This document shows, piece by piece, positions 175 to 26,592 of a stretch of DNA of 64,000 bases. The DNA is from Bdellovibrionales bacterium (GTDB lineage Bacteria; Bdellovibrionota; Bdellovibrionia; Bdellovibrionales; UBA1609): assembly GCA_041690295.1 (NCBI GenBank), contig JAWLHR010000008.1:32001-96000 (forward strand), in the 5' to 3' direction. The notes under the pieces are model-generated. The model did not search any database, had not been told where the DNA came from, and saw nothing but the letters and a program-made list of their open reading frames with translations. The position numbers and the translations under genes are program-made. The stretch's first letter is position 1. Every line of letters begins with the position of its first letter.

Positions 175-1674
175 CTAGCGAATCAGGCGACCTTCGCAGG
201 CCGCTTTAAGTTTGCGCAACTTTCGCACATTCGGCTTTTGAAAATCCGCCGAGAACGGTTTTTGTGAGATCTCAACCGAGATGACATCCGTCTCATTGAA
301 CCGGAGTTCTCTTCCATGGCTGTTCACCTCGGGACTGTCATAATCCAGCGTGCTGCCGTTGGCCGCGATGATTTCGCGGTAATGGTGATCCAGAAAGCGC
401 ATGGGCCGAGGCGGCTCTTCCGCCACGGCCTTCAGCATGGTTCTGATGATGGGGAAGAAATTCATGTTGGCGCGAATGCTGTGATCGGGACCGAGCACCA
501 CAAGATCCGTACGGAAGATCTTCGGTGCCGCGGTCTTGATCGTCCGCAGAATCAAATCCGTTTGCGCGGCCGTGAGATCCGGGCCTTGAACGGTGTGCAC
601 GAAGACGGCTTTACGTCCGGCTATTTCGACAAGAGTCAACCCCAGGTAGCCCAGGGAGTGGCCATCTTGGTCAAAAATGTAATAGTAGCGGTCAAAGGGA
701 TTCAGAGCGAACCCGGGGGAGAAGGACGTGGAGCAGTCATTGCCCACATAACCTCGAAAAATTCCCACATTCGGATGCACTTCCTTGATGTGCAATTGAT
801 CACCCACATTCAGTGTCTGGTCGATTGGTTCGGAAAATACATTTTCACTGATGGCTTTATGGACCTTGTCCAAAGTGTCGGTTGTGATTTTAACTTTCAA
901 CCGGGACAGCAGCGGCTTGTAAACCTGGGCGTCTTGCATGAAATCCAGGGCCCCGACTTCAAGGTCCCGCAGCCGCGACATTAAGACCGCGGCCGGCCGT
1001 CTTTGCTTGGGCGTGTTCAGGATCCCACCGATGATCAGATAACCGCTGAGAAGCGTATGGAACTCCTGCATGGCGCGGAGAGAGGGCAACGCACGGTGCA
1101 CGGCCGCCGCTTCCAGTTCCGCGGCCAGGCGATCGAGGATTTGCTTTTTTGATGAGCGATGGCTTGCGACCTGTAAAGCCAGCGATTGCCACTTGATCTT
1201 CCACATGTTCCAGCGTCGCTTGTTGAGCTGGATGGAGTTCTCGCTTTCAATGGGACGAATCACCGTGACCGAGATGTCGGTGAGCGGCTCGCGCTCGGAC
1301 CAATCCTTGTAAAATTCCGGATGTTTTGAAAGCTCAATTAAAAGCTTTTGTTGAATGTATGAAAGCTTGGAGAGCCCGGCGTAATAGCTCAGGTGTTCGT
1401 AGCGAATGGCTCCGGGGAAGGCGCGTTCATGCTCTTCGAGAAGGGATTTGATGTACGCATCGGCGTTTCGGTAATCCCTTTGCAAAACCGTGCTGGGAAA
1501 ACGGATGGTCTGTGGTTTGGAGGTGGTCGCGCGAAGCGGTTGGGGAACAACCAAAAGGCCGGCGGCCAAAACAAAAATATCGGTGATCATGGACAGCCAA
1601 CCAATTAAAGGAAATTTATTTTTATTGCAAAGTCTTGATCGCCGAGCGACCGACCGATTGTAAAAGTTCATCAT
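175..1674 (-). CDS. Exported protein, RGxVGxDCS family paralogue 1, C-terminal CEGRL tag
   Basis: Hydrophobic N-terminal segment ending PLRA (alternative start ATG at 1590). Motif EVHPNVGIFRGYVGNDCSTS shared with three neighbours. Ends ACEGRLIR. Confidence 0.8.
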   Translation of the reverse strand: MMNFYNRSVARRSRLCNKNKFPLIGWLSMITDIFVLAAGLLVVPQPLRATTSKPQTIRFPSTVLQRDYRNADAYIKSLLEEHERAFPGAIRYEHLSYYAGLSKLSYIQQKLLIELSKHPEFYKDWSEREPLTDISVTVIRPIESENSIQLNKRRWNMWKIKWQSLALQVASHRSSKKQILDRLAAELEAAAVHRALPSLRAMQEFHTLLSGYLIIGGILNTPKQRRPAAVLMSRLRDLEVGALDFMQDAQVYKPLLSRLKVKITTDTLDKVHKAISENVFSEPIDQTLNVGDQLHIKEVHPNVGIFRGYVGNDCSTSFSPGFALNPFDRYYYIFDQDGHSLGYLGLTLVEIAGRKAVFVHTVQGPDLTAAQTDLILRTIKTAAPKIFRTDLVVLGPDHSIRANMNFFPIIRTMLKAVAEEPPRPMRFLDHHYREIIAANGSTLDYDSPEVNSHGRELRFNETDVISVEISQKPFSADFQKPNVRKLRKLKAACEGRLIR

Positions 1675-1685
1675 TCGCCAAGAGA

Positions 1686-2807
1686 TTAGTCGTCATCGCC
1701 AAAAAACAAACCCCATAATCCAAAGAATCCGGAACCGGGTTTTTCAGGCCGCTGATTTCGTTTTGGCGGCGCGGGGGGTGGGGGCGGCGCCGGCGCCGGC
1801 AGATTCTGTCCTTCGACGGCGAACCGGAAACTCAGATTCTCCTCGGCCAACGGTGCGGCGGTCATCCGCACCCGGGCCGAATAACCCACGACTTCGGTGA
1901 TCAGGCGCGCGGCCTGAACGTAGTAATCCCAGTTCATATTTTTGATCGTGTCTTTTGGCCCATGATTGTACGGATTCTCGAACTGCGAGCCGTAGGGTCT
2001 GGCCATTAAAATCGCCGGCTGATCCTCTTCCCAATAGACTCCGTGATCGGCCGCTTCCGGATCGATGCGATGAATTTCAGAAGCGACTTTCAGTCCGCGG
2101 TCCACGGGTAAGCGGCGAAGCTGATAGAAGATTTCCCGCGCGAGCGGAAGGTTGTCCTCGCGATCGCCAACTTCGGCGACGATCACCGGCTCGCGGTGCT
2201 TCGGAAAATAACCGATGGCATCGACAATGAGCACGCCGATGAGCTTTCTTGGATCATTCTCCAATTGTCGGGCATGGTGTCTCGCGCCCGCGCCGTCAAC
2301 TTCTTCCAGGTCATGAAAGATCAAGCGCACGGTCCGGCCGGGCGGGTGATGGCGAAACAGCTCCGCCAGATGCAACACAAGGGCGACGCCCGCGCCATTG
2401 TCATCGGCGCCGGTTTCAACCGCATCATAGTGGGCGCCGATTTCCAAAATCTCATCCGGGGTTTCGAGGCCGGGGATTTCAACCACCACGTTCGCCCCTT
2501 CAAGAAAAGTTTCAAAGGTGGCCGAATAGCCAAGCTGCCTTAAATGTTCCGCGATCGAGAGACGGGCGATCTCCCGGCTCAGTTTATTCGATCGCTCTTC
2601 AAGACGAACGCCACCCCATAAGGCCTTATCTCCGCTTATGAAGGCGATATGACTGCGCAATCGATCCGGATTCACTTTGTTGGCGAAGGCGTAGGCGGCA
2701 TGAACTTTTGGATCAGGCTGCTCCTGTACCAGGACCGGTTCACAGGGTTCTTCGATATGGGCCTGCGCCACGGCCACGAACAAAGACAAAAGTAAGTGAA
2801 GAACCAT
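1686..2807 (-). CDS. Exported M28 family metallopeptidase, N-terminal CEPVL tag
   Basis: Start re-assigned to ATG 2807 (GGGAG upstream; signal peptide MVLHLLLSLFVAVAQA). M28 motifs GAHYD, GADDNGAG, DLEE, YNHGPKDT. Pro-rich tail. Confidence 0.85.
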   Translation of the reverse strand: MVLHLLLSLFVAVAQAHIEEPCEPVLVQEQPDPKVHAAYAFANKVNPDRLRSHIAFISGDKALWGGVRLEERSNKLSREIARLSIAEHLRQLGYSATFETFLEGANVVVEIPGLETPDEILEIGAHYDAVETGADDNGAGVALVLHLAELFRHHPPGRTVRLIFHDLEEVDGAGARHHARQLENDPRKLIGVLIVDAIGYFPKHREPVIVAEVGDREDNLPLAREIFYQLRRLPVDRGLKVASEIHRIDPEAADHGVYWEEDQPAILMARPYGSQFENPYNHGPKDTIKNMNWDYYVQAARLITEVVGYSARVRMTAAPLAEENLSFRFAVEGQNLPAPAPPPPPAPPKRNQRPEKPGSGFFGLWGLFFGDDD

Positions 2808-2947
2808 TCCCGCTCCCGGTGGTAAGGCGGCCTTTATACTGGGAGCAAGGCAGGCATGCAACTTGGTACTATTTACCAGTTTCTGTAGAAATTGTAGGAA
2901 GCGGTCCGCCCGTTGCCCAAATTCAACCGCTTTGTTACCTGACTGAA

Positions 2948-4612
2948 ATGCGAAAAATCCTTCTCTTTGTAACCTTGTGGTTCTCGTTTGCCGCCGTCGC
3001 GAATGAAAAAACATGTGAAGATCAACTGACCGGTGTCACGGACGAAAGAGTCTTGCAGGCTCACGCCATCGCTTCCCTTCTCGATACTGGGGAGATGCGC
3101 GAGTACTTGAAATTGCTCACGGGTGAAAAACCACTGCCGACGGGTCTTCTGCTTCACGCCCGCAACACCCGAGAGACCCGCGCGATCGCCCGTTTACATC
3201 TCAAGCGCATGATCGAAGAGATGGGATACAAAGTTGAGATTGATAGCTTCGATAATGGCGCGAATGTGATCGTGGAGATCCCTGGAAAAAGCAGGAACCA
3301 CGAAATCATTGAGGTCACCGCTCATTATGATTCAGTTGTCACCGGCGCCGATGATAACGGCGGCGGCACCGTCCTTTTGTTGGGTATGTTGAAGCTCTTT
3401 AAGAATGTAGAGCACGAGCGCCGGCTGCGATTCGTTTTCATGGATCTTGAAGAGCAAGGGATGCAGGGAAGCCGTTATCATGCCGAGCGTGTGGCCCGAA
3501 CCATGAATGATGAAAACAAACTGGTGGGAGCCATCGTGGTGGACACGATCGGATGGGCGCATCCGGAGAGTCAAACTTATCTCGGTGTGATGGAAGTCGG
3601 ATGGGAGTTTGATCAGGACCATGCCCGCATCGAGTTCGCCAAGGACCTCAATTATGTCATCCGGCGTGTGGGATCCCGTGACGGTCTTATTATTTCGGTT
3701 GAAACGGATCAAGCGAAGCCATTCACGACCGATCTGGGATCGTACTGGACTCATAAACTGCCCGCGGTTTTGGTGGCCGCGCCCTATGAGTTGGGATTTG
3801 TTAATCCGTACTACCATACAGTGAGGGATACGATCGCCAATATGAACTGGGACTACTATCGACGAATGGCCATGACCATCGTCGAAATGACCGCCTACGT
3901 CTCTCATATGAAATTGAAGAATCCGGAATTGATTTCCCCCAAAGGGTGGGAGTTGCTGGCGGAGCTGGAACATAGAGACGTGGATCGGCGGACTTTCCAA
4001 TTGGATCCCTCGGTGGATCGCAGTGTATCGCTGAGTCCGGAGCTGCGTTTTGTGACCACCAAGGCGAAGAAAACCGAAAAGTCGAAAAAGCGGAAGAAGC
4101 GCAAAAAACAGGAAGTCATTAATCATGTGCCAGCTGACAGGCCGGTTTCAGATCCTGATTACACACCACCTCTTTATATAGAGCGGTATATCGATGAGAT
4201 TCGGAAAACTCCGGGTGAAGAACTTTTCTTCATCGTTTTCCCGGCGGATCAACAAAAGTATCTCCATGGCTTTGTCATGGCCGGATCGAAAATGCTGGAT
4301 TTGCATTACGACTCGTTTGCGACCTACAAGATGATCTACGACGAAGTTCGGGCGCGGAGAGGAACGGTTTACGGCGTAAAAACCCCTTTCACGGCAGCAA
4401 GACGTCGAATGGAGAACGAGGATTTCTTCCTGCGCACGTTGGAGATTTATAAAAGCGACGAATTCGACGGCGTCAAATTTATTTCAGGTATCGGGGAAGT
4501 GCAGTTTTATAGGATGTATCTGACAATGGATTTGTCGTGGGTGGTTTCAGGCAATGCCTTTGAGAAATTATCCGTTGATAAGCCGCAACTCCCGTTGCCC
4601 TTCGAAGACTAA
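2948..4612 (+). CDS. Exported M28 family metallopeptidase with C-terminal extension, N-terminal CEDQL tag
   Basis: Start re-assigned to ATG 2948 (signal peptide MRKILLFVTLWFSFAAVA). Motifs TAHYD, GADDNGGG, DLEE, YYHTVRDT. Lys-rich linker, then an unknown domain. Confidence 0.85.
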   Translation: MRKILLFVTLWFSFAAVANEKTCEDQLTGVTDERVLQAHAIASLLDTGEMREYLKLLTGEKPLPTGLLLHARNTRETRAIARLHLKRMIEEMGYKVEIDSFDNGANVIVEIPGKSRNHEIIEVTAHYDSVVTGADDNGGGTVLLLGMLKLFKNVEHERRLRFVFMDLEEQGMQGSRYHAERVARTMNDENKLVGAIVVDTIGWAHPESQTYLGVMEVGWEFDQDHARIEFAKDLNYVIRRVGSRDGLIISVETDQAKPFTTDLGSYWTHKLPAVLVAAPYELGFVNPYYHTVRDTIANMNWDYYRRMAMTIVEMTAYVSHMKLKNPELISPKGWELLAELEHRDVDRRTFQLDPSVDRSVSLSPELRFVTTKAKKTEKSKKRKKRKKQEVINHVPADRPVSDPDYTPPLYIERYIDEIRKTPGEELFFIVFPADQQKYLHGFVMAGSKMLDLHYDSFATYKMIYDEVRARRGTVYGVKTPFTAARRRMENEDFFLRTLEIYKSDEFDGVKFISGIGEVQFYRMYLTMDLSWVVSGNAFEKLSVDKPQLPLPFED

Positions 4613-6798
4613 GACGCGGAAAGCAGCGATTCGCACTCAGACGATAAAATTCTCAAGACTTCAGAGATCTGGCCTTGCTCATCATTCGTTAACTGAGGAT
4701 CCTCGGCCTTGGCCTTCACCATGGGAATCAGATCTTTCAAATCGAGGTTCGAGAAGTTGATTCCCCGCGAGTGAATCAAAACCAGCTTTCGATAATCTTC
4801 GGGCGTTCCGTTAAGCAGCTGGACGATGAAATTTCTAAAGCTGGTTGAGGATTCAAAGAGAGACGGGTTCATGCCGATGGCGACCAAGGCCAAGTAAGGC
4901 CTGGGCCAGCGTTTAAGCATGGCGATGGTGAATTGGACGGTCTTCTTGAGCAAAGCCTGATTGGTGGTCGTGGTGGCGTCAGGGCTTTGCAGATGTCCTT
5001 CGTAAAACAGGTAAGGCCGGGATTCGATCAGGTCATCGGTGAGTTCGATGTCCAATTCTTGAAACGCTTGCCTGATCGTTTCGTAATAGGAGGCCAGCGG
5101 TTGCAAGTGCGGGTTTCGCAAGTGATCCTGGATGGGGAGCAACCGTCCCGACCTCAATTGGATGTTGTATGGCTGGAGAATCGCGGCGGCCACTTGTCGC
5201 CGGAAGCCGTAATTCAAGGCACCTCCGTTACCAAGGTGCGCGCGAATATCCATAATCACTTGCTCCAAGTGATTGTGCGCGGTGCTGTTTTCTTGGCTGG
5301 CCAAGAGATCCAATGCCGCGAGAATCGCTTCGCGAGGACCGATAGGCTTTTTGCGATCGACAAAACCACCCAGCGATGAGGGGCTGGTTTGAATCCGAAC
5401 GGAATCAAAAAATGATCGATCCAAGAGGACCTCGTGACCGACTCTGTTTTTGTCGGGACTGTCATAATCCGGGACGAACCTGATTTCTGACGTCAACTGG
5501 GCCAGCTGATCTCTTAAGGCGGCATCGGGATAATCGAGCTTATGAGTTTGGTCGCTCAATATCTCATAAAGAAGGTTATGAAGGGCCACGTAATTGATGT
5601 TGCGATAAATGACGGATTTTTGGGGTAAGAGAATTTCTCCGTAACCCAAATCCTTGGCGGCCTTTCGTAAACCATGGAGCGCCAAGAGCACGTGCCTTCG
5701 CGAAATCGAGGGTCCGCTAATGGAATGGATATAAAAGTATCTCCTGGAGTTTTCTTCGGTTCGAACCACTGTGCCTTGCAAATAGCCGAGCAGTTCTCCC
5801 TGGTGGGAATAAACAAAGAACGTGCGTTCCTGGGGCATGTAAACGAACGGGAAGGATGTTGAAGTAGAACAGTCCCCGCCCACAAGTCCGCGCCATACGC
5901 CGATCTGAGGAGGAACCTCAATGAGTTTGAGCGCGAGCCGCTGATCCTCTTTCGCCTCGCCGGTTTTACTATAGAATTGAGCGCGCAGACTTTCGCGCAC
6001 GGTTTGCGCATAGGCCAGAAGTTCCGGCGAGGCTTCGAGTTCGGCCTCGGTCAGCACTTCGGACCAAAGGGTCTCATCGTCGCCGAAAAGCTCTTCACAG
6101 TTCGTTGAACGGTGCCGCTCACCGCAGACTCTCATTAAATAGGAGGCAAACGCCAGTTGATTGTTGTTCCATTTCTTGGCCAATTCGATGGCTTCCGACC
6201 ATTCCAAAGATTCAAGGCCATAGCGTGAGGCCTTGAATTTCTGACGGAATGATTCCGCATTGACCGGATGTTTGCTCAGAAATTCCAGTCGCTCGTTAAG
6301 ATTTTTGATCCGAAAACCCTTGGTTTTGAGTTCGCCGGCGTAAAGACTCATCATTCCCGTGATCAAACCATTCAGTTTTTCTTGAACCAGGTTAGGGGCC
6401 TCAGCCCACCAGTCTCTATCCACTGGCCGCGGACCAAGCGCGCGGCGCAGCTCATCCGCGTCCACCCGCCGTCCCGATTCTTTGATCTTTATGGAAGTTG
6501 AGATGGCAATCTCCATAAGGGGCGGGCGCTTCGCGGCCAACACCACAAATTCGTGATTGTTCCGCAACCAATTCACCAGGCCGTTTTGACTATTGATGAT
6601 GGCCAGAAAATCGACATCGTATTCCGCGCCTTGTTCGAACAAAGTGGGAATCACCTGCTGTAGGTAGAGCAAATATTGAACCTGTTCGTCGATCGTGGTG
6701 ATGGGATTGGGTAAACGGTCTTTGGCGATGACGCATGTCGACGACAGGCTGGCAATAAAAATGGCGATCGAAATTAAAAATCGCAATAGGGGCTCCAT
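4609..6798 (-). CDS. Exported protein, RGxVGxDCS family paralogue 2, C-terminal CESLL tag
   Basis: Signal peptide-like N-terminus; EVPPQIGVWRGLVGGDCSTS; ends ECESLLSAS. Confidence 0.85.
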   Translation of the reverse strand: MEPLLRFLISIAIFIASLSSTCVIAKDRLPNPITTIDEQVQYLLYLQQVIPTLFEQGAEYDVDFLAIINSQNGLVNWLRNNHEFVVLAAKRPPLMEIAISTSIKIKESGRRVDADELRRALGPRPVDRDWWAEAPNLVQEKLNGLITGMMSLYAGELKTKGFRIKNLNERLEFLSKHPVNAESFRQKFKASRYGLESLEWSEAIELAKKWNNNQLAFASYLMRVCGERHRSTNCEELFGDDETLWSEVLTEAELEASPELLAYAQTVRESLRAQFYSKTGEAKEDQRLALKLIEVPPQIGVWRGLVGGDCSTSTSFPFVYMPQERTFFVYSHQGELLGYLQGTVVRTEENSRRYFYIHSISGPSISRRHVLLALHGLRKAAKDLGYGEILLPQKSVIYRNINYVALHNLLYEILSDQTHKLDYPDAALRDQLAQLTSEIRFVPDYDSPDKNRVGHEVLLDRSFFDSVRIQTSPSSLGGFVDRKKPIGPREAILAALDLLASQENSTAHNHLEQVIMDIRAHLGNGGALNYGFRRQVAAAILQPYNIQLRSGRLLPIQDHLRNPHLQPLASYYETIRQAFQELDIELTDDLIESRPYLFYEGHLQSPDATTTTNQALLKKTVQFTIAMLKRWPRPYLALVAIGMNPSLFESSTSFRNFIVQLLNGTPEDYRKLVLIHSRGINFSNLDLKDLIPMVKAKAEDPQLTNDEQGQISEVLRILSSECESLLSAS

Positions 6799-6971
6799 CC
6801 GGCCGCGGGCTCGAAATCGTTTGTTTTTAATTGCCGTGGCTTATCAGCAACCGAGTCGGGTATCAATGTGAACTTCCCCCCAATCTTGCGAACATGAAAA
6901 AATTCACATTTTCCGATGGCCGCTAAGTGTGCTAGCGCTCGCCTATTCTCAGGGTATGGAGATCTAAATAA

Positions 6972-9389
6972 ATGCGGCTTGCTTCTTGCCTCCGCCTTTT
7001 GGTGCTGGGGTTTATTTTATCCATTGGCGTTTCTCTTCACGCCAAGATGGATTTACCGCCGATTCTGAACACTCAGGAAGAGTTTGCGGAATACGAGCGC
7101 ATGATTCGCACCTTGATTCCTGAAACCGGTGTGAAACGAAACTTTCCTATCAGTGTTATCGATTTGATATCAATGGAGCAAAACCTGCTGCGGCACCTGT
7201 TAGCGGATCCGGAATACGTCGCCGCGGCCGAGGCTCGCCCGCCGCTACAGACCTTGCGATTTCAAGAGATCAAAATGGAATCCGTGCGGGGAATGGGGGC
7301 CAATCCCCAATGGGATAAGTTTTTGGAAGCGCACGGATATGATCCTCAACTGAATGAAGAGCAAGCCCAAAAAGAGCTTCTTTCGCTGTTTCATAGATGG
7401 TCGACTTTTTCCGCCAATGGCTTTTTCTCCGGTTGGGCCGCGCTTCTCCGCGGTGAGATCAAGGAGATCCTTCGCGAACCCGATCTCATTGAGCGCTGGC
7501 GGAGACTCAAAGCCGTTTTGACCGAAAAAGATCCAGCGGTGGTGCGCAACTTCAAAGCTGAGCGCTACGGGATCACGTCGCCGGATTGGACATTAAATGA
7601 TCTTGATGCGGTTGTCGAAAGGCTCAATGAACTGGAATCCCGCATTCTGGTTTTGCTGCAGCGTCTGAACCAGGACCTTCCCTTTCGTGATCGTTTCACC
7701 ACTCACGGAATTGAACATAACGCCGGCAATCTGCTGAGCGGGCTTTCCGCGCGGGCTCTTCGCCTTTACGCCGATCCGGACATGGAGATCGTGCAGAGAA
7801 CCGTCACCAAGGAACTCATCTTGCGCGAGGTTCCTCCCACGCTGGCGATTTATCGGGGTGTCGTCGGTAACGACTGCTCAACCGAGCGTTCGTTCGCTTA
7901 CCCGTACAGTCCCTATGAGCGCGTGTGGTGGGTGGAGAAATCCGACGGCACTCGGTTGGGATACGTTTCGGGTAACATAACATTAGTTGAAGATAGGCCG
8001 TCGCTATTCATCCGCGATGTTCAGGTTCCAGGGCTGCACGGAGACGATGCGGCGATTGATCTGATCCTCGCCGGATTTTACCTCGCCCGTCCGTACTATG
8101 GCGTGAATCAGATGACCGTGATGAATACCAATTTCACCTTTCAGAATAATTTATCTAGCCACAGGGAGAAATTGGTTCAGCTTTTAGGGGCGACATCCGA
8201 GCCCGTCCAACAAAAATTCCAGGATGAAAGGTGGCGTGAGGGCATCTTGAAATCAATGGTCCGTGCGGACGGCTATGATGGGAGCAAAATCCACGCGCAA
8301 GTTCGTCGGGTGTTTTATTCGCCTGAAACGCTTGAGAAGTACCAGGTGCAAAGAACATCCGGTGGCGCGGTTGAAGCGATCGATCCACAGGAGTCGCCGG
8401 AACAATTTTGGGAGATTCTTGCATCAGCCACCATGAATCAGGATCCGTTCATTTTGCAAGCCGCGGTCAAAACGCCGGAGGAGATCTCCTGGAAAAACAT
8501 CATCAACTTGTTTTGGAACCGCGATCGGCTGCCGGTGGAACTTTTTTACGGCTCGGTGGAATTGGCTCTGCGGCAGGTGAATCTTCCGGTCAGCCGGAAT
8601 CTGATGCGCAAATTCGAATCCGTTTTCGCCAACGGCCACTTGGCGGCCCCGGATGCGTTCGAGGGCGAGAAGAACACCCGTCAAAGCATTCGGTTCGTCA
8701 TGGATGCCATTTGGCGCTCACGGGATATGAAGCGGGCCACGGAACTGGTTCAGAAGTACCTTGAGCCGCTCGAAGAGCATGATCTGATGGTCCGAAACGC
8801 CCGCAGCTTGTTTGAACGCCGGCAACCCGAGGACGTCGCGCGAATCGAAGCTCTGCTTGCCGCCGGTTATCGATTTCGTCGCCAGCTTCTCGGGCAACGG
8901 GACTGGTTGTGGCTGGCTCAAGTGGTTAACTCGGAAGAACATAAGCTTTGGGCGATTTCGCATTTAATACCAAACGAAAATTTCGTGAACGTGGGCGACC
9001 TCATTCCTGGGGTGATCGAAGTTTTGGCGCCACTGTTGAATAATGAAGACGAAGCGGTGCCGGAAGAGTTCAGTATCAAGGCCGCGGCGATTTTGTTTCG
9101 AATCGTCGGCGCCGGTGCGGTCTCGCCCGAAGTTCAGGCGGAAATGGAAGAGACAATTCAATTCGAAGAGAACTTGCAGATTCTATTCCCCATCGCCGTG
9201 GCGTACCTGCGGGATTACGTAACGACGCCGGAGCAAAGGGCCAATCCGAAATCGGTCTGGAATATGGCTTTTCAGGTCGTCCATAAGGAAGCCAAGAATC
9301 GAGAATTGGATAAAGTGTGGCGCGGGGAAGCCGCCAAAATTTTGCGACAATACAAATCCGAATGTGAAAATCTTCTGACTGGTGCGTGA
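6972..9389 (+). CDS. Exported protein, RGxVGxDCS family paralogue 3, C-terminal CENLL tag
   Basis: GGAG RBS; signal peptide ending SLHA; EVPPTLAIYRGVVGNDCSTE; ends ECENLLTGA. Confidence 0.85.
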   Translation: MRLASCLRLLVLGFILSIGVSLHAKMDLPPILNTQEEFAEYERMIRTLIPETGVKRNFPISVIDLISMEQNLLRHLLADPEYVAAAEARPPLQTLRFQEIKMESVRGMGANPQWDKFLEAHGYDPQLNEEQAQKELLSLFHRWSTFSANGFFSGWAALLRGEIKEILREPDLIERWRRLKAVLTEKDPAVVRNFKAERYGITSPDWTLNDLDAVVERLNELESRILVLLQRLNQDLPFRDRFTTHGIEHNAGNLLSGLSARALRLYADPDMEIVQRTVTKELILREVPPTLAIYRGVVGNDCSTERSFAYPYSPYERVWWVEKSDGTRLGYVSGNITLVEDRPSLFIRDVQVPGLHGDDAAIDLILAGFYLARPYYGVNQMTVMNTNFTFQNNLSSHREKLVQLLGATSEPVQQKFQDERWREGILKSMVRADGYDGSKIHAQVRRVFYSPETLEKYQVQRTSGGAVEAIDPQESPEQFWEILASATMNQDPFILQAAVKTPEEISWKNIINLFWNRDRLPVELFYGSVELALRQVNLPVSRNLMRKFESVFANGHLAAPDAFEGEKNTRQSIRFVMDAIWRSRDMKRATELVQKYLEPLEEHDLMVRNARSLFERRQPEDVARIEALLAAGYRFRRQLLGQRDWLWLAQVVNSEEHKLWAISHLIPNENFVNVGDLIPGVIEVLAPLLNNEDEAVPEEFSIKAAAILFRIVGAGAVSPEVQAEMEETIQFEENLQILFPIAVAYLRDYVTTPEQRANPKSVWNMAFQVVHKEAKNRELDKVWRGEAAKILRQYKSECENLLTGA
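7819..7846 (+). repeat. 28-bp exact repeat shared by the tandem paralogues (second copy 10215-10242)
   Basis: TCTTGCGCGAGGTTCCTCCCACGCTGGC read at both positions. Confidence 0.9.
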
Positions 9390-10813
9390 TTGTGAAGCGG
9401 GCGCTAATCCTCATTTTGATCGCTCTTCACGCTCTCTTGGCCAACGCCAAGATGGATTTCCCTCCGGTGTTCGAATCCGAGATGGAGGTCCGTAACTACG
9501 CTTTTAAGATCGCCAGCCTTCTTCCGGAAACAAAAATTCCCCGACAATACAGCGCCGATGTTTTGTCGGTCGTCAAATGGGAACAAATGTTGTTGAAGGT
9601 TTTATTGGACGATCCGAGTTGGGTGGCCGCCACGAAAAAGCGCGAAGCCCTTCAATTGTTTCGTGTGCGTTACATTGTCAAACACCAGGTGAAAGAGCTG
9701 GAGCCGAACACCCGTTGGAAGGAACTCCTCGACCAGGCTCCGGATCTGGACGCCACCGCCGCTTATAAGGAATTTGAACAGCTTGTTCGGAGTTGGCGAG
9801 AAGTCAACTCTCAGCGATTTTTTTCGGGCTGGGCGTCGCTCTTTCCCTCGGAGGTTAGGGATATCTTGCGTGAACCGGATTTAAATCTCCGATGGCGGAA
9901 TCTGAAATCGTTTTTGAAGACGGCTTCTCCTCTTATTATCTCGCGATTTAAAGCGGAAATTTTCGGTGCTTCTCAGCGGGATTGGACCTTGGATGATCTG
10001 GATGACGTGGTGAAAAAACTGAATGACGTTGAAACTCGGATTCTACTTCTCTTGTATCAGCTGAATCATGGCCAAACATTTGAAAAACGGTTTTCGCTAC
10101 CCGATAGCTACTCGTATTTGAGTAAACACATGAACTCTCTTGTCTCACGCGCGCTGAGACTCTATTCAGAGGTCGCCAAAGTGACCGAGGAGCAAGAGCT
10201 TGTCTATGATTTCGTCTTGCGCGAGGTTCCTCCCACGCTGGCCATTCACCGGGGCGCGGTGGGCAAGGATTGCTCGAGTCTTTATTCGTTCGCTTTCCCG
10301 TACAGTCCTTTTGAGCGCGTCTGGTGGGTGGAGTCACCCGAGGGGCAACGCTATGGTTATGTCTCGGGTAACATAACTCTTGTGAATGGAACACCCAATC
10401 TCTACATCAGTGATGTCCAAGTGCCAAGTCTTCCGGGCGGGCAAGCCATAGAGTTCATTCTCAAAGCGTTTTATATGATAAAGTCCCATTACGGCGCGAC
10501 TCAAATGACCATTATGCATGAGGACTTCACCTATCAAAATCACATCCCGTTTCATCGCAAGTTCCTCGTGGAAGCCAAAGGCGCCCACAGAACCTATGTC
10601 CGTCAGTCCTATCAGGATAGCGGTTGGCGGGGGGGTGTTCTCAAGGAGTTCAGCCAGAAAGCGGCTCAACGGTTCGATGTGAACTATGACAGTGCCGAAC
10701 GCCACGAACTCGTGCGTCAGGTGTTTTATCCGGGAAGCGAACTCGAGGGACTGGAAGTCGAACGAAAAATTCTAGATTCCCAGTCTTGCGAGAATCTTCT
10801 AGCGGCCAGCTAG
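9386..10813 (+). CDS. Exported protein, RGxVGxDCS family paralogue 4 (tandem duplicate of 6972..9389), C-terminal CENLL tag
   Basis: GTGA overlap with the upstream gene; signal peptide ending ANA-KMD; EVPPTLAIHRGAVGKDCSS; ends SCENLLAAS. Confidence 0.85.
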   Translation: MIVKRALILILIALHALLANAKMDFPPVFESEMEVRNYAFKIASLLPETKIPRQYSADVLSVVKWEQMLLKVLLDDPSWVAATKKREALQLFRVRYIVKHQVKELEPNTRWKELLDQAPDLDATAAYKEFEQLVRSWREVNSQRFFSGWASLFPSEVRDILREPDLNLRWRNLKSFLKTASPLIISRFKAEIFGASQRDWTLDDLDDVVKKLNDVETRILLLLYQLNHGQTFEKRFSLPDSYSYLSKHMNSLVSRALRLYSEVAKVTEEQELVYDFVLREVPPTLAIHRGAVGKDCSSLYSFAFPYSPFERVWWVESPEGQRYGYVSGNITLVNGTPNLYISDVQVPSLPGGQAIEFILKAFYMIKSHYGATQMTIMHEDFTYQNHIPFHRKFLVEAKGAHRTYVRQSYQDSGWRGGVLKEFSQKAAQRFDVNYDSAERHELVRQVFYPGSELEGLEVERKILDSQSCENLLAAS

Positions 10814-11931
10814 GGCAATAGAGCGAATTCACAGGCGCGTTTCTTCTCCAGATCAGCGAAGCGCTTGCTTTTTTCATATTTCTCGACTTCTCCGTCGGTG
10901 ATCCATTTCGGCCAGAGATAATCGCGATGATCTTCCCATTTCTCGCCGGCCTCACTCAAATAACGATGGAACGATTCCAGGGCTTTTTGCGGATTCACCG
11001 GTGGTACGAGTAAGGCGTCGTTCGGGTCCGATATAGGTAAAACGGGGGTTTCGAGCTTCAGGGGAATTGGTTCGTTTAAACGGGAAAGGTAGTTGAGGCG
11101 GGCTTGGAGCAAGCGAATCTGCGCGAGCCAGGTGTAAATGGATTGTTGCGGGCGAACACCTCTAAGTTCAAGACGTCCGCGCGGAAGCGAATCAGCATTT
11201 AAGAAATTGATCGCCACCCACCGAGTTCGAGAAATGTAGTATTTCCCCCACATGTGGAGATAAGGATCATGCATTTCCCAGAAGGCTTTCTTGATATCTT
11301 TGAGAAAGCGGAATGTCCCGGCCGCGACAGGTGCGTAGGCGCCCGCATCGAAGTCTTCGATCACCTTTATGAATTTAATTTTATGGCTTTCGGGAAACAA
11401 AGGGTAAGGGAGCGCGTTGTGAGTGTCATAGTTGAAAATGCCCATGAAAAGTTCGTTATGATTGTGAAGATCGACAATGAAGTTGCGAAGGAGAAGGGGA
11501 TGCTCCATCAAGTCATGGATATCGATGTTGATGTGTCCGCCGCCCAAGAATAGGGCGGGATAACTTTGTTCGTTCCGCGCGGAAACAAATATCGCATCTT
11601 CGATATCGGCGGCGAAACGGGTGAAGTCGTAAACAGTCATCGGCTTCATCTTGATTTCGACCACACTCAAATCGACGGACAGCTCGTATTCCCATCCGTT
11701 CGGTGAGATAAAGACGCGCTTACCGATGGTCCTGAACCTAGCTCCCGGTAACTGGCCATAAACCAGGTGATCCCTCATTCGATGAAAGAACCGCTCAAGA
11801 TAATCATGCTGTCCTTCGGGCGGCGTTTGAAAGGTGAACTCCGGCCCGAACAGAAGTTGGACCTCTGGTGGCTTGGCATGGACGAATCCAGCCAAGAAAA
11901 TGAGAATTATAAAAATTGCATCCTTACCCAT
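10810..11931 (-). CDS. Exported putative amidoligase (glutamine synthetase/GCS-like COOH-NH2 ligase fold), C-terminal CEFAL tag
   Basis: Start re-assigned to ATG 11931 (signal peptide ending VHA). Motif order FGPEFTF, WEYELSVDLSVVEIK, GGGHINI, RWVAINF, RLELR resembles amidoligase families. Ends ACEFALLP. Confidence 0.65.
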   Translation of the reverse strand: MGKDAIFIILIFLAGFVHAKPPEVQLLFGPEFTFQTPPEGQHDYLERFFHRMRDHLVYGQLPGARFRTIGKRVFISPNGWEYELSVDLSVVEIKMKPMTVYDFTRFAADIEDAIFVSARNEQSYPALFLGGGHINIDIHDLMEHPLLLRNFIVDLHNHNELFMGIFNYDTHNALPYPLFPESHKIKFIKVIEDFDAGAYAPVAAGTFRFLKDIKKAFWEMHDPYLHMWGKYYISRTRWVAINFLNADSLPRGRLELRGVRPQQSIYTWLAQIRLLQARLNYLSRLNEPIPLKLETPVLPISDPNDALLVPPVNPQKALESFHRYLSEAGEKWEDHRDYLWPKWITDGEVEKYEKSKRFADLEKKRACEFALLP

Positions 11932-12040
11932 GGAAATAACGCGGATTACACCTAAATGACTCGAAGCTTCCGTGCAAGCAGGCCGAAAGTTTTTGCCAAA
12001 TTTTCTTGGAATTTTCTGACGCAATCTGCAATAAAGTGCC

Positions 12041-15000
12041 ATGCGAAAAATTTGGCTCGGCCTTCTCCTGTTTTGGTGGCTGCCCGCTTACGCGCACGAC
12101 ACCAACTGCGAACGAAATCTTTTAGCGGAGTTAGTGACCGCGAACTTCAAAGAACATTTGGTCGAAGTGCCTGATATCCGTGGCCAAGTCGTTAAATTGC
12201 TGGCCGACCAGGAAGTCTCCCGCCGGATGGAATTGGATGCCGACCTGACGGCCCGGCATGAGGCCCGGGAGATGTCCTTTCAAGTCAAAAACGGAATCAC
12301 CGGGCTTTACGATAAATTTGTCGCGGTTGAAGTGAATAGTTTTGTGGCTCCGATTCTCAAATCGGATTTTGATCGCATGGTCGCATCAACCGGACCCTTG
12401 ATGCGGCTGTACCGGCAACTTCTGCAGAAGATTTACTCCATCCCGAACGCCGGAATTGAAGATCTGGGATTCGGCGACCTTCCGCGCGAGGAGGCCGAGC
12501 TGGCGCTTCATACGATCCGTGACTCCATATATCTGGAGCCGGCGCTGATTCACCCCAACATGGCCGAATATCCCTTTTTGGCGGTGGCGGGCTTTGACGG
12601 CGCGGTCGTGGATCCCAAAAGGCCCGCCACGGAATTTTTTGAAACCAATCTCGGCACACCGAGCGGACTCAGCAATAACGTTCAACTCCTTCATGATCTG
12701 TTATGGCTCAACGAGCCCTTGAAAAAGCTGGTCGAGCCTTACCTGCCTAAAGACGACACGTTTCAGATTTTACGTAAAGCCATCGAAAGCAATGCCCGCG
12801 CCTGGACCGGAAAAGAGGGGCTGAGCGTTGTGATCTCGCCAGGGATTTATAACGGCGCCCATCCGGACGTGGCCTCCATCGCACGGGCTTCGGGCATGCC
12901 GCTGGTGAAAAGCAGCGACCTTTATGAGGACCGTGATGGATATATTCGGTTGAATACGGGAAAAGGAGAGGAGGACCCTCTTGTCACCGGTATTTATGGA
13001 CGAATGGAAGAATCCTTTTTTCTCCAGTCCAACGCCGATAAAATTCCACTGATCAGTCCGAATTTCCAAGACAATCAGGCTTTATCCGAGAGGCTGGGGG
13101 TCGACCTTCGCCCGGGCGCGATTTATGACTTCATCTATGACGACGGGGGCAAAATCGTCGGCGTTCACCGTGACGAAAACGGCGAACCCAAATTTTTGGA
13201 AGTCTGGGATACGATCAGCGAAGATCCTTCGCGGCCGGGTCATAGGGGGAGCTTCGCCAAAGCCATCATCAATCGCAAACTTTATTACAGCAATATCGGC
13301 GGTCGGGTGGTCGATGACAAACGCCTGTTTCGGATCCTGACCAGTTACCTGCTTCCGCAACTTCCGGATATGGCCCGGCCCATCCGGGGCCTGGCCCAGG
13401 ATCAATTCGATCTTTTCTACGCCAACCCATCGAGCTTCGTGGTGAAAGAGCCTGGCAACTCCGGCGGAGTGGGAATTTACTTTCCCCGCGCGATGAGCGA
13501 GAGCGCGGTGGCCGAATTGGTCGAGCGCGTCCGCGCCCGGCCGACGGAATTTGAAATTCAATATCTGAGTGCCATCGCCACTTTGCCGGCGGTGAGCCAA
13601 TCGAAAAGCGGCCGGGAAGTCCATAGTGAGGTCCCCATTGATTTGCGAATTTTCGTGATGATGGATGCGGACGGAAATGTCGACGCCGGACCTAATTCAA
13701 TTCTCTTACGAACCGGCGCGCGGGGCGGGTTGTACACCAACACTTCCCGCGGCGGCGGTTACGGGATCGGCTTGATCCTTGAAGACCAGCCGGGGGTCCG
13801 TGAGACGAAGCCTTTTCAATGGGCGAAAATGCAAGTTGGTCAGTGGCCGAAAAGCCGCGAAACAGAGCTGGCCACCGTGCTCGAACAGGGCACCGCTTTG
13901 ATCAAATGTCTCTTTTCTTTGCGCTTCAATCAGGATGATAAAAAATGGAACGAGTGCCGAAGCCAGGCACTCGACCTTTCCTTCGCTTACCGGCAGGTCA
14001 TGGACTTGATCAGTCCTTGGCATTTGCAAGTGATCGCGACGTTAAGGAACTTCGCCCATGGGCGGGACCGCAACCTGGTTCAAAGCACCGAACTGGCCCG
14101 GCGAATGATTCAATCCTTCCGCCGCATGCGGCAGTCGGAGGGCGCGCTCGCGAACGTGGCCGCTCCCTTTTTCGCGAAGCACGCCCGCGAGTTGGGCCGC
14201 TTGGACCCCGTTGATCTTCAACATTTAAGGCTTCCCACCAAAGCCAAACTTCGCCGATTGGATCCGCCGGAGGTGAGCTATCGCTATGCGCCGGAAGGCA
14301 AGCTTCGCTCGCGGAAAATCGAGTTCGCCGAGTACATTTGGGTCGACAATCCCGAAGTGCAGGAAGTGATCGACGAGGTGAAGGCGTTCGGCGGCCAGGT
14401 GAGATTGCTCATTCGCGAAGTGGCGATCGAGAATCCGGAAGGCGTCGATAAGTGGTTCGGTCGCGAGTCCGCTTATTTCTGGGTGAATCTCAATCCCAAG
14501 TCCCCGTCCTATCTAATGCCCGTGATCGGCATTGATCTGGCCCGGGAGATGTCACTGGCGGCCCTTCATCATGAGCGGGAACATTTCCGGATGTTGCGCG
14601 AACTTTATGCCAATTACCGGCGGCGCGGCTTCGGTCATGAAAAAGCCATGCTCCGAGCCTATGCCGAAACCGAGACGGAAGAGAAAATCGTCGAAGCCGA
14701 ACGGCGTGCGGTGAAGGCTGAGATCAATGCCGAAGTCGAGTATGCCGACCATCCCTATAACCGGTTTTTCGGTAAATCCTGGGAAGCGAATCATTTTTAT
14801 GAAATCGGATTTGTGAACCGGATGACCTATCCGGAGTTTGAAGGCCTGCGCCGGCATTTGCGCCAGGTGAAGTGGGACCGGGTGCCGGTGAAAGAGGATT
14901 TCATCCGTAAAACCTTCTCCGCCGCGATTGATTTCGCGCTAAAGACCCGGGACCAGGCCTTTCTCCACTTTATGGAAAAAGATGATTTAGCCTCCATCCG

Positions 15001-15160
15001 GCTGTGGCGTGAATCCAATGTGTTCCTGATGCTCACCCAGCCCTATGGGCATGAGCGGCTGGAATTAGATGGCATTCGCGATGATTTTAAACTCTGGCTG
15101 TCCAAGGTCTGCGCCGAAATGGGCGTGAGTGCCGAAGATTGCGGAGTTCCGGTCCACTAA
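12041..15160 (+). CDS. Exported circularly permuted ATP-grasp protein with C-terminal HExxH region, N-terminal CERNL tag
   Basis: Signal peptide ending AYA. Motifs FFETNLGTPSGLS, VVDDK, VVKEPGNSGGVGI, IDLRIF, NTSRGGG are typical of CP-ATP-grasp type 2. HHEREH followed by EAERRA near the C-terminus. Confidence 0.8.
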   Translation: MRKIWLGLLLFWWLPAYAHDTNCERNLLAELVTANFKEHLVEVPDIRGQVVKLLADQEVSRRMELDADLTARHEAREMSFQVKNGITGLYDKFVAVEVNSFVAPILKSDFDRMVASTGPLMRLYRQLLQKIYSIPNAGIEDLGFGDLPREEAELALHTIRDSIYLEPALIHPNMAEYPFLAVAGFDGAVVDPKRPATEFFETNLGTPSGLSNNVQLLHDLLWLNEPLKKLVEPYLPKDDTFQILRKAIESNARAWTGKEGLSVVISPGIYNGAHPDVASIARASGMPLVKSSDLYEDRDGYIRLNTGKGEEDPLVTGIYGRMEESFFLQSNADKIPLISPNFQDNQALSERLGVDLRPGAIYDFIYDDGGKIVGVHRDENGEPKFLEVWDTISEDPSRPGHRGSFAKAIINRKLYYSNIGGRVVDDKRLFRILTSYLLPQLPDMARPIRGLAQDQFDLFYANPSSFVVKEPGNSGGVGIYFPRAMSESAVAELVERVRARPTEFEIQYLSAIATLPAVSQSKSGREVHSEVPIDLRIFVMMDADGNVDAGPNSILLRTGARGGLYTNTSRGGGYGIGLILEDQPGVRETKPFQWAKMQVGQWPKSRETELATVLEQGTALIKCLFSLRFNQDDKKWNECRSQALDLSFAYRQVMDLISPWHLQVIATLRNFAHGRDRNLVQSTELARRMIQSFRRMRQSEGALANVAAPFFAKHARELGRLDPVDLQHLRLPTKAKLRRLDPPEVSYRYAPEGKLRSRKIEFAEYIWVDNPEVQEVIDEVKAFGGQVRLLIREVAIENPEGVDKWFGRESAYFWVNLNPKSPSYLMPVIGIDLAREMSLAALHHEREHFRMLRELYANYRRRGFGHEKAMLRAYAETETEEKIVEAERRAVKAEINAEVEYADHPYNRFFGKSWEANHFYEIGFVNRMTYPEFEGLRRHLRQVKWDRVPVKEDFIRKTFSAAIDFALKTRDQAFLHFMEKDDLASIRLWRESNVFLMLTQPYGHERLELDGIRDDFKLWLSKVCAEMGVSAEDCGVPVH

Positions 15161-15162
15161 GT

Positions 15163-15705
15163 TCACAGAATCAATTTTCGCAGCTCTTCCTGGGTGTAGG
15201 CGTAATCCGCATAGACCATGGTGTTCGTGATGTTTCGATGACCAAGAGCCACTTGGACTAAACGAAGGTCCTTGGTCTTTTTGTAAAGCCTTATGGCGAA
15301 AGTGTGCCTTAGGGCGTGGAGTTTCTTATGGACGGGACGGTAAAGCTCCCAGACCTGGCGCAAACGATTGTACGAGATGGGAAAGAGTAACTGATTTTGA
15401 GCATTGGGGATTTCGCTGACCAACCGGCGGAACAGCCAGCTGGGGACGGGGAGCTCCCGATCGTTGCTGCCCTTAAGACCATGGATGAACACCGACTCAT
15501 CGAACGTATTTAGATCATCGATGCGAAGATTGAGGACCTCTTGGGCTCGGGCGCCGGTGTGCAAGAGCAGCCAAAGAAGGGTGCAGTTGCGTGGATCCTT
15601 GGCCTTGAATGAGTTGAGGATGTGAACCAGCCGATCGTATTCGGGATCCAAGAGGTACTTATTCTTGTTTAATGCGTATCGAACTTTAGTCCGAAACTGT
15701 GCCAC
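15163..15705 (-). CDS. Tyrosine recombinase, catalytic domain only (180 aa)
   Basis: Catalytic set present: HTGARAQE (R), GLKG (K), HALRH, LGH, TMVY. No N-terminal core-binding domain. Confidence 0.9.
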   Translation of the reverse strand: MAQFRTKVRYALNKNKYLLDPEYDRLVHILNSFKAKDPRNCTLLWLLLHTGARAQEVLNLRIDDLNTFDESVFIHGLKGSNDRELPVPSWLFRRLVSEIPNAQNQLLFPISYNRLRQVWELYRPVHKKLHALRHTFAIRLYKKTKDLRLVQVALGHRNITNTMVYADYAYTQEELRKLIL

Positions 15706-25153: not shown

Positions 25154-25681
25154 TTGAGTGATGTTTTGTCCGTGAATGAAGTCAAAAGTCTGATCCGGGA
25201 TGTTCCTGATTTTCCCAAACCGGGCATTCTTTTTAAAGACATCACTCCGGTTTTAAATCATCCCAAGGCGTTTCAATCGCTGGTTATTCATCTGGCGGAG
25301 CTGGTTCCGCCGGGCACGACCCGTTTGGCTTCCATCGAGAGCCGGGGATTCATTCTCGGCGCGGCGGTTGCTCACAAGCTCGGTCTTGGCATGACTTTGA
25401 TTCGAAAGCCGGGGAAACTGCCGTCAAAGACGATTTCTTATTCCTATCAACTGGAGTACGGCAGTGACACTCTTGAAATCCACGCCGACGCTTTGGATTC
25501 GACGGACAAGGTCTGTATCATCGATGACGTGCTGGCCACGGGTGGAACGGCCTCCGCGGCCGAACTTCTTTGCGCCAAGGCCGGTTCAAAAATTTCGGGC
25601 TTCGCGTTCATGATGGAGCTTGGCTTTCTCAAAGGGCGCGAAAAATTAAAAGCGCCGGTTCAGAGTTTAATCAGTTTGTAG
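25154..25681 (+). CDS. apt: Adenine phosphoribosyltransferase
   Basis: PDFPKPGILFKDIT, ESRGF, IIDDVLATGGT. Confidence 0.95.
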   Translation: MSDVLSVNEVKSLIRDVPDFPKPGILFKDITPVLNHPKAFQSLVIHLAELVPPGTTRLASIESRGFILGAAVAHKLGLGMTLIRKPGKLPSKTISYSYQLEYGSDTLEIHADALDSTDKVCIIDDVLATGGTASAAELLCAKAGSKISGFAFMMELGFLKGREKLKAPVQSLISL

Positions 25682-26552: not shown

Positions 26553-26592
26553 TTCCCCTATTGTTATGGTTCAGCGGGCTTGAGTCAATGTT

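Follow-up and report, generated by a model that had tools for sequence, protein, structure and literature searches.

A terminal single-cysteine tag on exported proteins of unrelated families in a Bdellovibrionales bacterium

A run of tagged genes at one locus

Eight consecutive genes of a Bdellovibrionales bacterium (GenBank assembly GCA_041690295.1) each encode a protein with the short motif Cys-Glu-x-x-Leu (C-E-x-x-L or CExxL; hereafter, the tag) at one terminus. The genes occupy positions 175-15160 of the window, that is, the whole 64,000-nucleotide stretch of DNA analysed here (C8:32001-96000, C8 being contig JAWLHR010000008.1), within a 2.88-Mb genome of 30 contigs and 99.9% completeness. 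They belong to a larger set: a terminal single-cysteine tag that is real, widespread, selected, and apparently undescribed occurs on approximately 39 exported proteins of this genome. The preliminary description of the locus had reported eight genes with C-E-x-x-L at one end, from four unrelated families. In the list of open reading frames (ORFs) of the window, all eight were indeed found with their tags, on both strands, and the four families are the M28 peptidases, the ATP-grasp enzymes, a glutamine synthetase-like (GS-like) ligase family, and a family with an invariant G-x-D-C-S motif (the GxDCS family). Five of the proteins end with the tag (CEGRLIR, CESLLSAS, CENLLTGA, CENLLAAS, and CEFALLP at the C-terminus), and three carry it 4–5 residues past an AxA-type signal-peptidase site (AQA/HIEEP-CEPVL, AVA/NEKT-CEDQL, and AYA/HDTN-CERNL, the slash marking the site).

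Four of the five C-terminal carriers, genes 1, 4, 5, and 6, belong to the GxDCS family, whose C-terminal half is weakly GNAT-like. Gene 1 (175-1674, minus strand; alternative start at 1590) encodes a short form of 499 residues that is homologous to gene 6 (E 2e-15); its tag, C-E-G-R-L, lies at 184-198 (minus strand) with the Cys at −7 from the end, and its atypical, signal-anchor-like N-terminus is the least canonical signal peptide among the eight. Genes 4 (4609-6798, minus strand; 729 residues) and 5 (6972-9389, plus strand; 805 residues) both encode signal peptides and were found by a search with gene 6 (as P0333 and P0242, respectively); the tag of gene 4 is C-E-S-L-L (4621-4635, minus strand) and that of gene 5 is C-E-N-L-L (9363-9377, plus strand), each with its Cys at −8. 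The product of gene 5 is 44% identical to that of gene 6 (9386-10813, plus strand; 475 residues), which also ends in C-E-N-L-L with the Cys at −8 (10787-10801, plus strand). An AlphaFold2 (AF2) model of gene 6 has a mean predicted local distance difference test score (pLDDT) of 92.6, with the last ten residues, which hold the tag, below 50; this fits the expectation for a free linear motif. The likeness of the C-terminal half of the family to GNAT proteins is weak in Foldseek (best E 0.02, probability 0.9–0.99, target template-modelling score, or TM-score, 0.35–0.52).

The fifth C-terminal carrier is gene 7 (10810-11931, minus strand), which encodes 373 residues from the ATG at 11931, including a signal peptide; its tag is C-E-F-A-L (10819-10833, minus strand) with the Cys at −7, and this is the sole Cys of the protein. 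Its AF2 model (mean pLDDT 92.3) matches glutamine synthetases, PafA, Dop, and YbdK in Foldseek with a probability of 1.0, albeit with TM-scores of just 0.33–0.42, and gene 7 is predicted from this model to share the carboxylate-amine ligase superfamily fold (GS / PafA / GCS2). Neither Pfam nor NCBIfam holds a model that matches the tag or genes 1, 4, 5, 6, and 7.

The N-terminal carriers include two Peptidase_M28 paralogues of 37% identity. Gene 2 (1686-2807, minus strand; likely ATG start at 2805-2807 in an ORF open to 3014) has the signal peptide MVLHLLLSLFVAVAQA and the tag C-E-P-V-L (2730-2744, minus strand) five residues past AQA/H. Gene 3 (2948-4612, plus strand; likely ATG start at 2948 in an ORF open from 2708), with an additional C-terminal extension, has the signal peptide MRKILLFVTLWFSFAAVA and the tag C-E-D-Q-L (3014-3028, plus strand) four residues past AVA/N. 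Gene 8 (12041-15160, plus strand) encodes a circularly permuted ATP-grasp protein of 1039 residues with the signal peptide MRKIWLGLLLFWWLPAYA, and its tag, C-E-R-N-L (12107-12121, plus strand), follows four residues past AYA/H. Gene 8 and its closest relatives (P0391-P0395) also have two Cys approximately ten residues apart at the extreme C-terminus, as in C-x-E-x-G-V-x-x-x-D-C (15100-15160 in gene 8); this pair probably forms a small disulfide loop that is separate from the N-terminal tag.

Two further tagged genes lie directly upstream of the window, and the local run thus comprises at least ten consecutive tagged genes. One (C8:28151-32110, minus strand) reaches into the window with its 5′ end (positions 1-110) and encodes 1319 residues with a signal peptide, AAA_2, ClpB_D2-small, and Torsin-like ATPase modules, and a Peptidase_M41 (FtsH-type) domain; its tag, CEAALMN at the C-terminus, lies outside the window. 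The other (C8:26968-28146) ends in CESLLKK. The cluster (175-15160 plus C8:26968-32110) accordingly brings together putative peptide or amide ligases of the ATP-grasp, GS-like, and GNAT-like classes, which are commonly grouped as such, with two M28 peptidases and an AAA+/M41 protease, all with signal peptides. This composition suggests an exported toolkit for modifying proteins or peptides.

Enrichment at protein termini across the genome

A simple codon-usage script called 2496 ORFs in the genome (839,795 residues), 830 of which were flagged by a lenient signal-peptide rule; gene 2, overlapping the long open frame of gene 3, was dropped by the caller and is absent from the genome counts. CExxL occurs 97 times in these ORFs, on 18 occasions with fewer than ten residues between motif and stop. 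A heuristic scan assigned 25 of the 97 to positions just past a signal-peptide-like segment, 20 to the last 17 residues, and 52 to interiors. The region behind the signal peptide, taken as 34 residues around the end of the hydrophobic core, contains 19 CExxL, where the interior residues of these proteins would predict 0.78 (Poisson p 3e-20). At the C-termini of flagged proteins, there are 10 against an expected 0.26; five of the eight unflagged proteins with a C-terminal CExxL show by eye a signal peptide that the predictor missed, and the count becomes 10 to 15 once these are added. The interiors of exported proteins, by comparison, yield only seven matches in 224,290 positions, and Glu follows Cys at −7 and −8 in eight and seven cases, respectively, against approximately 1.6 expected. 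The genome-wide terminal enrichment that had been proposed as a check on the motif is, therefore, strong.

Seven likely false positives were removed from the 45 terminal matches: a GT9 glycosyltransferase, a helix-turn-helix regulator, and a transketolase on the basis of Pfam, a thioredoxin-reductase-like protein and a CxxC protein on inspection, and two uncertain cases. The curated set contains 38 proteins (22 with N-terminal and 16 with C-terminal tags), or 39 with gene 2, and all show signal-peptide-like N-termini of the Sec type. The tag is located 3–20 residues past the signal-peptidase site or within the last 5–17 residues, with the same consensus at both ends, and the tagged genes are scattered across many contigs. 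Among the 45 matches, Cys is encoded by 27 TGC and 18 TGT, Glu by 26 GAA and 19 GAG, and Leu by all six of its codons; this variation among synonymous codons indicates that the constraint acts on the protein and not on the DNA.

The proposal of the preliminary description, a portable tag that works at either terminus, thus stands as a protein-level motif found at one end or the other of Sec-type exported proteins of many unrelated families. Some tags are evidently inherited and not independent, since, among the window carriers, one family accounts for four paralogues and a second family for two; however, more than 15 unrelated families are tagged, and shared ancestry of whole proteins is as insufficient an explanation as had been argued. 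Chance is ruled out by the Poisson value in the N-terminal region, and a DNA-level element at gene ends by the free choice of codons. Together with the way in which the tag follows the signal peptide within families (see below), these points leave chance, inheritance from common carrier ancestors, or a DNA-level element with a practically negligible probability.

Conservation across the Bdellovibrionota

Gene 7 has 124 database relatives, all of them metagenome or uncultured-genome sequences; the named records with such relatives bear the labels Bdellovibrionaceae, Pseudobdellovibrionaceae, Bdellovibrio sp., and Bdellovibrionia. Among 120 of the 124, a Cys is present in the last 20 residues in 118, C-x-x-x-[LIVMFW] in 117, and CExxL in 48. 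For the GxDCS family, a cut-off of E ≤ 0.001 yields 288 cluster representatives; in the best 150, a Cys falls within the final 20 positions of 119 sequences, and the C-x-x-x-[LIVMFW] pattern is seen in 85. Two N-tagged families served as a C-terminal control, and in these the pattern occurs in the last 20 residues of only 1/120 and 1/72 members.

The N-terminal tags behave in a corresponding manner. Among the best 120 relatives of the tagged leucyl/phenylalanyl-tRNA protein transferase (L/F-transferase), 60 have a signal peptide, and C[ED]xx[LIVMF] stands directly after it in 45 of these (40 of them exact CExxL); in the 60 without a signal peptide, which are ordinary cytoplasmic enzymes, the pattern is found three times, by chance. 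Likewise, 49 of 72 ATP-grasp relatives look exported, and 37 of the 49 have C-x-x-x-[LFIMVW] behind the signal peptide, while the relatives without one have long low-complexity N-terminal extensions in place of the Cys tag. Within both families, therefore, the tag tracks the signal peptide and so travels with export. By these counts, each protein family holds its tag at one fixed end. Many gene 8 relatives (P0398-P0456), with or without a signal peptide, end in runs of glutamine (QQQQ at the C-terminus).

The GS-like family is present in 115 of 401 genomes sampled over the phylum and in 4 of 41 close relatives; the cluster is, therefore, patchy in its distribution. A 180-residue tyrosine recombinase (Phage_integrase, E 8.5e-23) is encoded at 15163-15705 (minus strand), where it abuts the 3′ end of gene 8. 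Because of this patchiness and the adjoining recombinase, the cluster may sit on a mobile island; no tRNA genes were found within the window.

The exact form of the tag differs between genomes. In the genome analysed here, it is C-E-x-x-L followed mostly by 2–3 residues (range 2–12), which are mostly polar. An uncultured relative (L008) has C-x-x-x-L without the Glu and with a single residue after it, on an AAA+ protein and three GS-like ligases, and an N-terminal tag on an ATP-grasp protein. In genomes of family f10, the protein terminates with C-x-x-[LI]-F itself (CESLF, CEGLF, CRRIF, and CKKLF), and those of families f22, f25, and f32 have amphipathic tails of 9–15 residues. Unrelated proteins of the same genome nevertheless share a form, for example CESLF and CEGLF in G369, CTSTLQ and CAPLLN in L008, or CHGLLRGLFLP and CRDVFRRIINL in G193. 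Thus, the motif C-E-x-x-L of the preliminary description holds as an enriched form in this genome, but this exact form appears specific to it, and the core that is conserved over the phylum is Cys-x-x-x-Leu/Phe, after which comes a short tail, hydrophobic or amphipathic, of lineage-specific length.

Whether tags change in step was quantified with 29 C-terminal tags from 22 loci, using non-homologous pairs only and with the caveat that related genomes are not independent. Tail lengths differ by 0.96 residues within a locus and by 3.49 between loci (permutation p < 0.0002), and agreement on Glu after Cys is 0.87 for within-locus pairs versus 0.39 between loci (p 0.002).

Cargo carrying the tag

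A Pfam run on 36 further tag candidates identified an M3 peptidase, a papain-like (C1) peptidase, three alpha/beta hydrolases, a trehalase, and a PhoD-like phosphatase. Also found were four cofactor-dependent carriers: the 1319-residue AAA+/M41 protein, a dynamin-family GTPase, the L/F-transferase, and a small ATP-dependent DNA ligase. The window families add the M28 peptidases, the ATP-grasp protein, and the GS-like ligase, of which the genome has two tagged copies. Approximately 20 carriers have no Pfam match even at E 0.5. In relatives, the tag is also present, behind signal peptides, on a SelO-like adenylyltransferase, an NADPH-dependent FMN reductase, and a C26 peptidase.

Seven of the 39 tagged proteins depend on ATP, GTP, or aminoacyl-tRNA, and 11 of the 39 if the acyl-donor-dependent GNAT-like family is included. 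For comparison, 60 untagged signal-peptide-like proteins were drawn at random from the 465 that passed filters for length and for the absence of a further hydrophobic stretch. These are ordinary envelope proteins, such as subtilases, solute-binding proteins, TonB receptors, BamB, LptD, SurA, and penicillin-binding proteins. Domains dependent on nucleoside triphosphates are present in four of them, namely FtsK, a Mur ligase, and two histidine kinases, none of which is an exported enzyme: they are anchored in the membrane or reside in the cytoplasm. Fisher tests give p 0.008 for 11/39 versus 4/60 and, with the control reduced to the Mur ligase, p 0.006; a cargo bias toward cofactor-dependent enzymes is thus no more than suggestive. 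The window also contains genes for an M14 carboxypeptidase-like protein and an S8 subtilase (25671-28161, minus strand) without a CExxL tag; not every ordinary secreted hydrolase here is, therefore, tagged.

One further arrangement of tagged genes lies beyond the window, at C8:105207-109219, where three same-strand genes encode an 818-residue N-tagged protein (CERIL), a 272-residue C-tagged protein (CESRLKVH at the C-terminus), and a DsbA-like lipoprotein with a CGHC site. The C-tagged gene overlaps the N-tagged gene by ten bases, and its family is rare (3/301 genomes). Fixed operon pairs of one N-tagged and one C-tagged gene were considered and rejected, the second apparent pair being the product of a wrong start codon ahead of an outer-membrane barrel gene.

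Cysteine parity, redox setting, and the mature N-terminus

Proteins with a tag tend to have an odd number of Cys residues. Counts are odd in 24 and even in 14 of the 38 tagged proteins, compared with 149 odd and 333 even among the untagged exported proteins that contain Cys (Fisher p 1e-4); a further 239 untagged exported proteins contain none. The tag Cys is the only mature Cys in 14 of the 38 and the only Cys beyond residue 25 in 62 of 120 GS-like homologues. In agreement with the earlier suggestion that the tag Cys does not pair within its own fold, it is thus usually unpaired there, and these single-Cys carriers rule out an intramolecular disulfide as a general explanation. A fusion of VKOR to DsbA and two DsbA-like lipoproteins are encoded in the genome, so the periplasm should be oxidising; DsbB was not found in this genome.

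A second residue is associated with the N-terminal form. An [AGS]-His junction, which makes His the first mature residue, precedes 8 of the 22 CE-type N-terminal tags, compared with 16 of 812 other signal-peptide-like proteins (p 3e-8). Within the ATP-grasp family, first-mature His accompanies 10/15 CE-type tags and 0/25 other tags (p 4e-6); in the L/F-transferase family, the corresponding numbers (11/40 versus 1/8) do not differ significantly. Three of the 16 C-terminal tags end in His (p 0.015). These patterns hint at a metal bridge as an alternative to a disulfide, since the combination of His, Asp/Glu, Cys, and Glu would be suitable for binding a metal.

Comparison with known signals

The lipobox, processed by Lgt, LspA, and Lnt, resembles the tag in that a conserved Cys stands near the signal peptide on many unrelated exported proteins. 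It requires, however, [LVI][ASTVI][GAS]-Cys with the Cys at +1, whereas residues −3 to −1 of the tag are polar (DTN, EKT, EEP, DIP, and QSK) and its Cys lies 3–20 residues into the mature chain, behind an AxA-type site; the lipobox is, moreover, strictly N-terminal, while 16 curated tags are within the last 17 residues. The earlier statement that the tag is not a lipobox is borne out. A CaaX box has its Cys exactly four residues from the C-terminus, compared with −7 or −8 here and −5 in the f10 genomes.

Signals of the sortase type (PEP-CTERM/exosortase, GlyGly-CTERM/rhombosortase, MYXO-CTERM/myxosortase, and LPXTG/sortase) are tripartite, consisting of a motif, a transmembrane helix, and a basic tail. 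Like the tag, they are brief signatures, particular to a lineage, that recur on dozens of unrelated exported proteins, and MYXO-CTERM likewise has an invariant Cys; the tag, however, has 2–12 residues after the motif, no transmembrane segment, and an N-terminal version. No match to exosortase (PF09721) was found in this 99.9% complete genome, rhombosortase and sortase not having been searched for. One Rce1/CPBP-like gene (PF02517) is present, as it is in 11 of 14 control genomes. Lipobox, CaaX box, and sortase-type signals were accordingly rejected as identities for the tag, which lacks their defining features.

In its logic, the tag is closest to the targeting peptides of encapsulins and microcompartments, in which a short terminal peptide at either end directs unrelated enzymes to one shared partner. 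Those are cytoplasmic systems whose peptides contain no Cys and whose cargo has no signal peptide; the tag has a Cys, and its cargo has signal-peptide-like N-termini. The genome has no match to the encapsulin shell Linocin_M18 (PF04454), microcompartment shell families not having been searched for, and encapsulin-like loading was set aside as no encapsulin shell gene was found. A different parallel is offered by AB toxins and by thiol-mediated retention, in which a single exposed Cys near one end joins an enzyme, by a reversible covalent bond, to a carrier or retention factor, and reduction in the target compartment releases it. There, the Cys belongs to one dedicated pair; here, it is part of a portable motif on approximately 39 cargos. 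Literature searches, which covered listings and abstracts from outside the subscription journals, returned no description of such a tag.

Proposed function and alternative explanations

The reading that we favour, albeit tentatively, is that the tag provides an exposed thiol handle by which cargo exported through Sec is coupled to a common partner that holds or routes it, probably toward prey. After Sec export into the oxidising periplasm, the flexible tag would expose an otherwise unpaired thiol. Flanked by Glu and Leu, and often near a His at the mature N-terminus, this thiol would dock to the shared partner through an intermolecular disulfide or possibly a metal bridge, and the partner would hold, assemble, or route the cargo. 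The destination would probably be the prey cell, because much of the cargo needs ATP, GTP, or aminoacyl-tRNA, and reduction there could release the enzymes. While the tag itself is observed, we infer that it forms a link between molecules, that the partner is shared, and where the cargo goes. The carrier or translocator, the thioester, and the route into prey raised in the preliminary description are likewise proposals.

Several findings weigh against a thiol handle of this kind. No partner, receptor, or machine for the tag was identified in this analysis. Thirteen tagged proteins have two Cys, so intramolecular pairing is possible there, and the second Cys of the GxDCS family is the invariant one of its motif. 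Two structures were modelled (genes 6 and 7), and in that of gene 7 the tag ends an ordered last helix (pLDDT approximately 73). The strictest cargo count (7/39 versus 4/60) is not significant (p 0.11). Gene calls and signal peptides come from crude scripts, and the signal-peptide predictor both over-calls (830/2496) and misses real cases. For the in-step test, this genome supplied 14 of the 23 within-locus pairs, and 7 of the 36 rows had been taken out manually as non-tags. In 400 kb of a congener (G016), there is one strict C-terminal CExxL, none behind a signal peptide, and approximately five looser candidates by eye, and clear cases were also few when 400 kb each of G369 and G193 were sampled; it may be that this genome alone uses the strict C-E-x-x-L form densely, or that tagged genes cluster in islands outside the samples. 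Finally, a B. bacteriovorus reporter with just a 20–23-residue Sec signal peptide reaches the supernatant according to the available part of PMC12622784, in which the word 'cysteine' does not occur; on that evidence, the tag is not needed simply for leaving the cell.

One candidate hub was examined and rejected. A large adhesin-like protein (C4:81510-84740, minus strand) has seven G-T-C-E-x-G-L repeats; each of these Ig-like repeats, however, has a second Cys 20 residues on, so the protein is not a docking hub. This protein, also found at G016:C1:188322-192458, consists of Ig-like repeats of approximately 88 residues with an end resembling a von Willebrand factor A domain, and despite its seven CExxL matches it is no tag carrier.

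The thiol handle can be extended to a modular delivery system resembling AB toxins, in which the Cys tag of each Bdellovibrionota genome would couple dozens of Sec-exported cytoplasmic-type enzymes (ligases, AAA+ proteases, GTPases, aminoacyl-tRNA transferase, and AMPylases) by a disulfide to a shared carrier or translocator, which would take them out of the predator and over the prey inner membrane to be freed in the reducing prey cytoplasm. We consider this extension unlikely. A low but appreciable probability attaches instead to a coupling of tags to one another, whereby tags would recognise each other and the Cys, or Cys, His, and Glu around a metal ion, would lock tagged proteins into extracytoplasmic multi-enzyme assemblies without any separate receptor. 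The ten adjacent genes, which look like one functional set, all carry tags, the N- and C-terminal tags have an identical consensus, and mutual recognition would explain why the tags of unrelated proteins shift together in each genome; the His residues of the mature N-termini and of some C-terminal tags also suggest a possible shared metal site. The carriers, however, number approximately 39, are diverse in function (trehalase, PhoD, DNA ligase, and lipase-like hydrolases), and are spread over many contigs, which makes a single assembly unlikely. Moreover, no defined pairing of N-tagged and C-tagged genes was found, and the L019/L030 pair has matches in just 3 of 301 genomes.

It is quite unlikely that the tag is a non-covalent secretion signal, a linear peptide for an outer-membrane step such as that of the type II secretion system (T2SS), read for example by the PDZ domain of GspC, with the Cys incidental or secondary. 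To our knowledge, no linear signal has been defined for type II substrates. PDZ domains bind C-termini of the C-x-x-[LI]-F-COOH kind, and the f10 tags are exactly of this form. A complete T2SS cluster is present in the genome analysed here, and at one locus of G193 (L090, G193:C1:2091300-2111299), a tagged SelO-like protein and a tagged GS-like ligase adjoin a full gspC(PDZ)-D-E-F-G cluster, whose products are GspC with its PDZ domain, a secretin, GspE, GspF, and GspG. Such adjacency, however, occurs at 1 of 22 loci examined, and the genome analysed here has no tagged genes beside its T2SS cluster; a free carboxylate is missing from N-terminal tags, and the near-invariant Cys and the bias to odd Cys numbers would be left unexplained. 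The release of the reporter bearing only a Sec signal (PMC12622784, available part) also argues against it. A latency or redox switch is improbable, too. The terminal Cys would fold back to cap an active-site metal or Cys, or form a regulatory disulfide, and so keep the enzymes silent until they reach a reducing compartment. A flexible tail could indeed reach the active site, M28 peptidases are metalloenzymes, and the 13 two-Cys proteins and the motif Cys of the GxDCS family, mentioned above, would provide partners; yet the 14 tagged proteins and 62 of 120 GS-like homologues without a second Cys would have none, the carriers are unrelated in fold and chemistry, many lack a metal or thiol centre, and genome-wide tuning over unrelated folds is not expected from intramolecular contacts. 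Similarly small is the probability of a membrane or lipid anchor, in which the Cys is S-modified (e.g., acylated) or the amphipathic tail binds a membrane, so that proteins would be held at the surface of the predator, on vesicles, or on membranes of the prey. The tail helices of other lineages are amphipathic, 9–15 residues long, and often basic (CLQRWLQTLLSRIP, CQKFFRSLFSKK, and CARLFEKLFRR, all at the C-terminus), and the hydrophobic residues that come after the Cys resemble a mirrored lipobox. Here, however, just 5–8 residues remain past the Cys, with an acidic neighbour, too short and polar for membrane binding; the sequence requirements of the lipobox are absent, and no enzyme that would make such a change to the Cys is known, nor was one detected.

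Implications for predatory bacteria

Little has been established about the routes by which Bdellovibrio-like predators send proteins past their own periplasm or about the identity of the proteins that they direct at prey, and these bacteria are not known to have classical injection systems. The tag marks a subset of exported proteins that is apparently rich in enzymes needing ATP, GTP, or charged tRNA, and it would supply a list of effectors for each genome. It also breaks the usual rule of even Cys numbers in proteins exported to oxidising periplasms, and the machinery involved could be sought by trapping the partner of its Cys. The tag could, furthermore, be portable for engineering predators as delivery vehicles. 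If delivery in the manner of AB toxins were true, the tag would be the first linear effector address for predatory bacteria, and their effector repertoire would be predictable from sequence.

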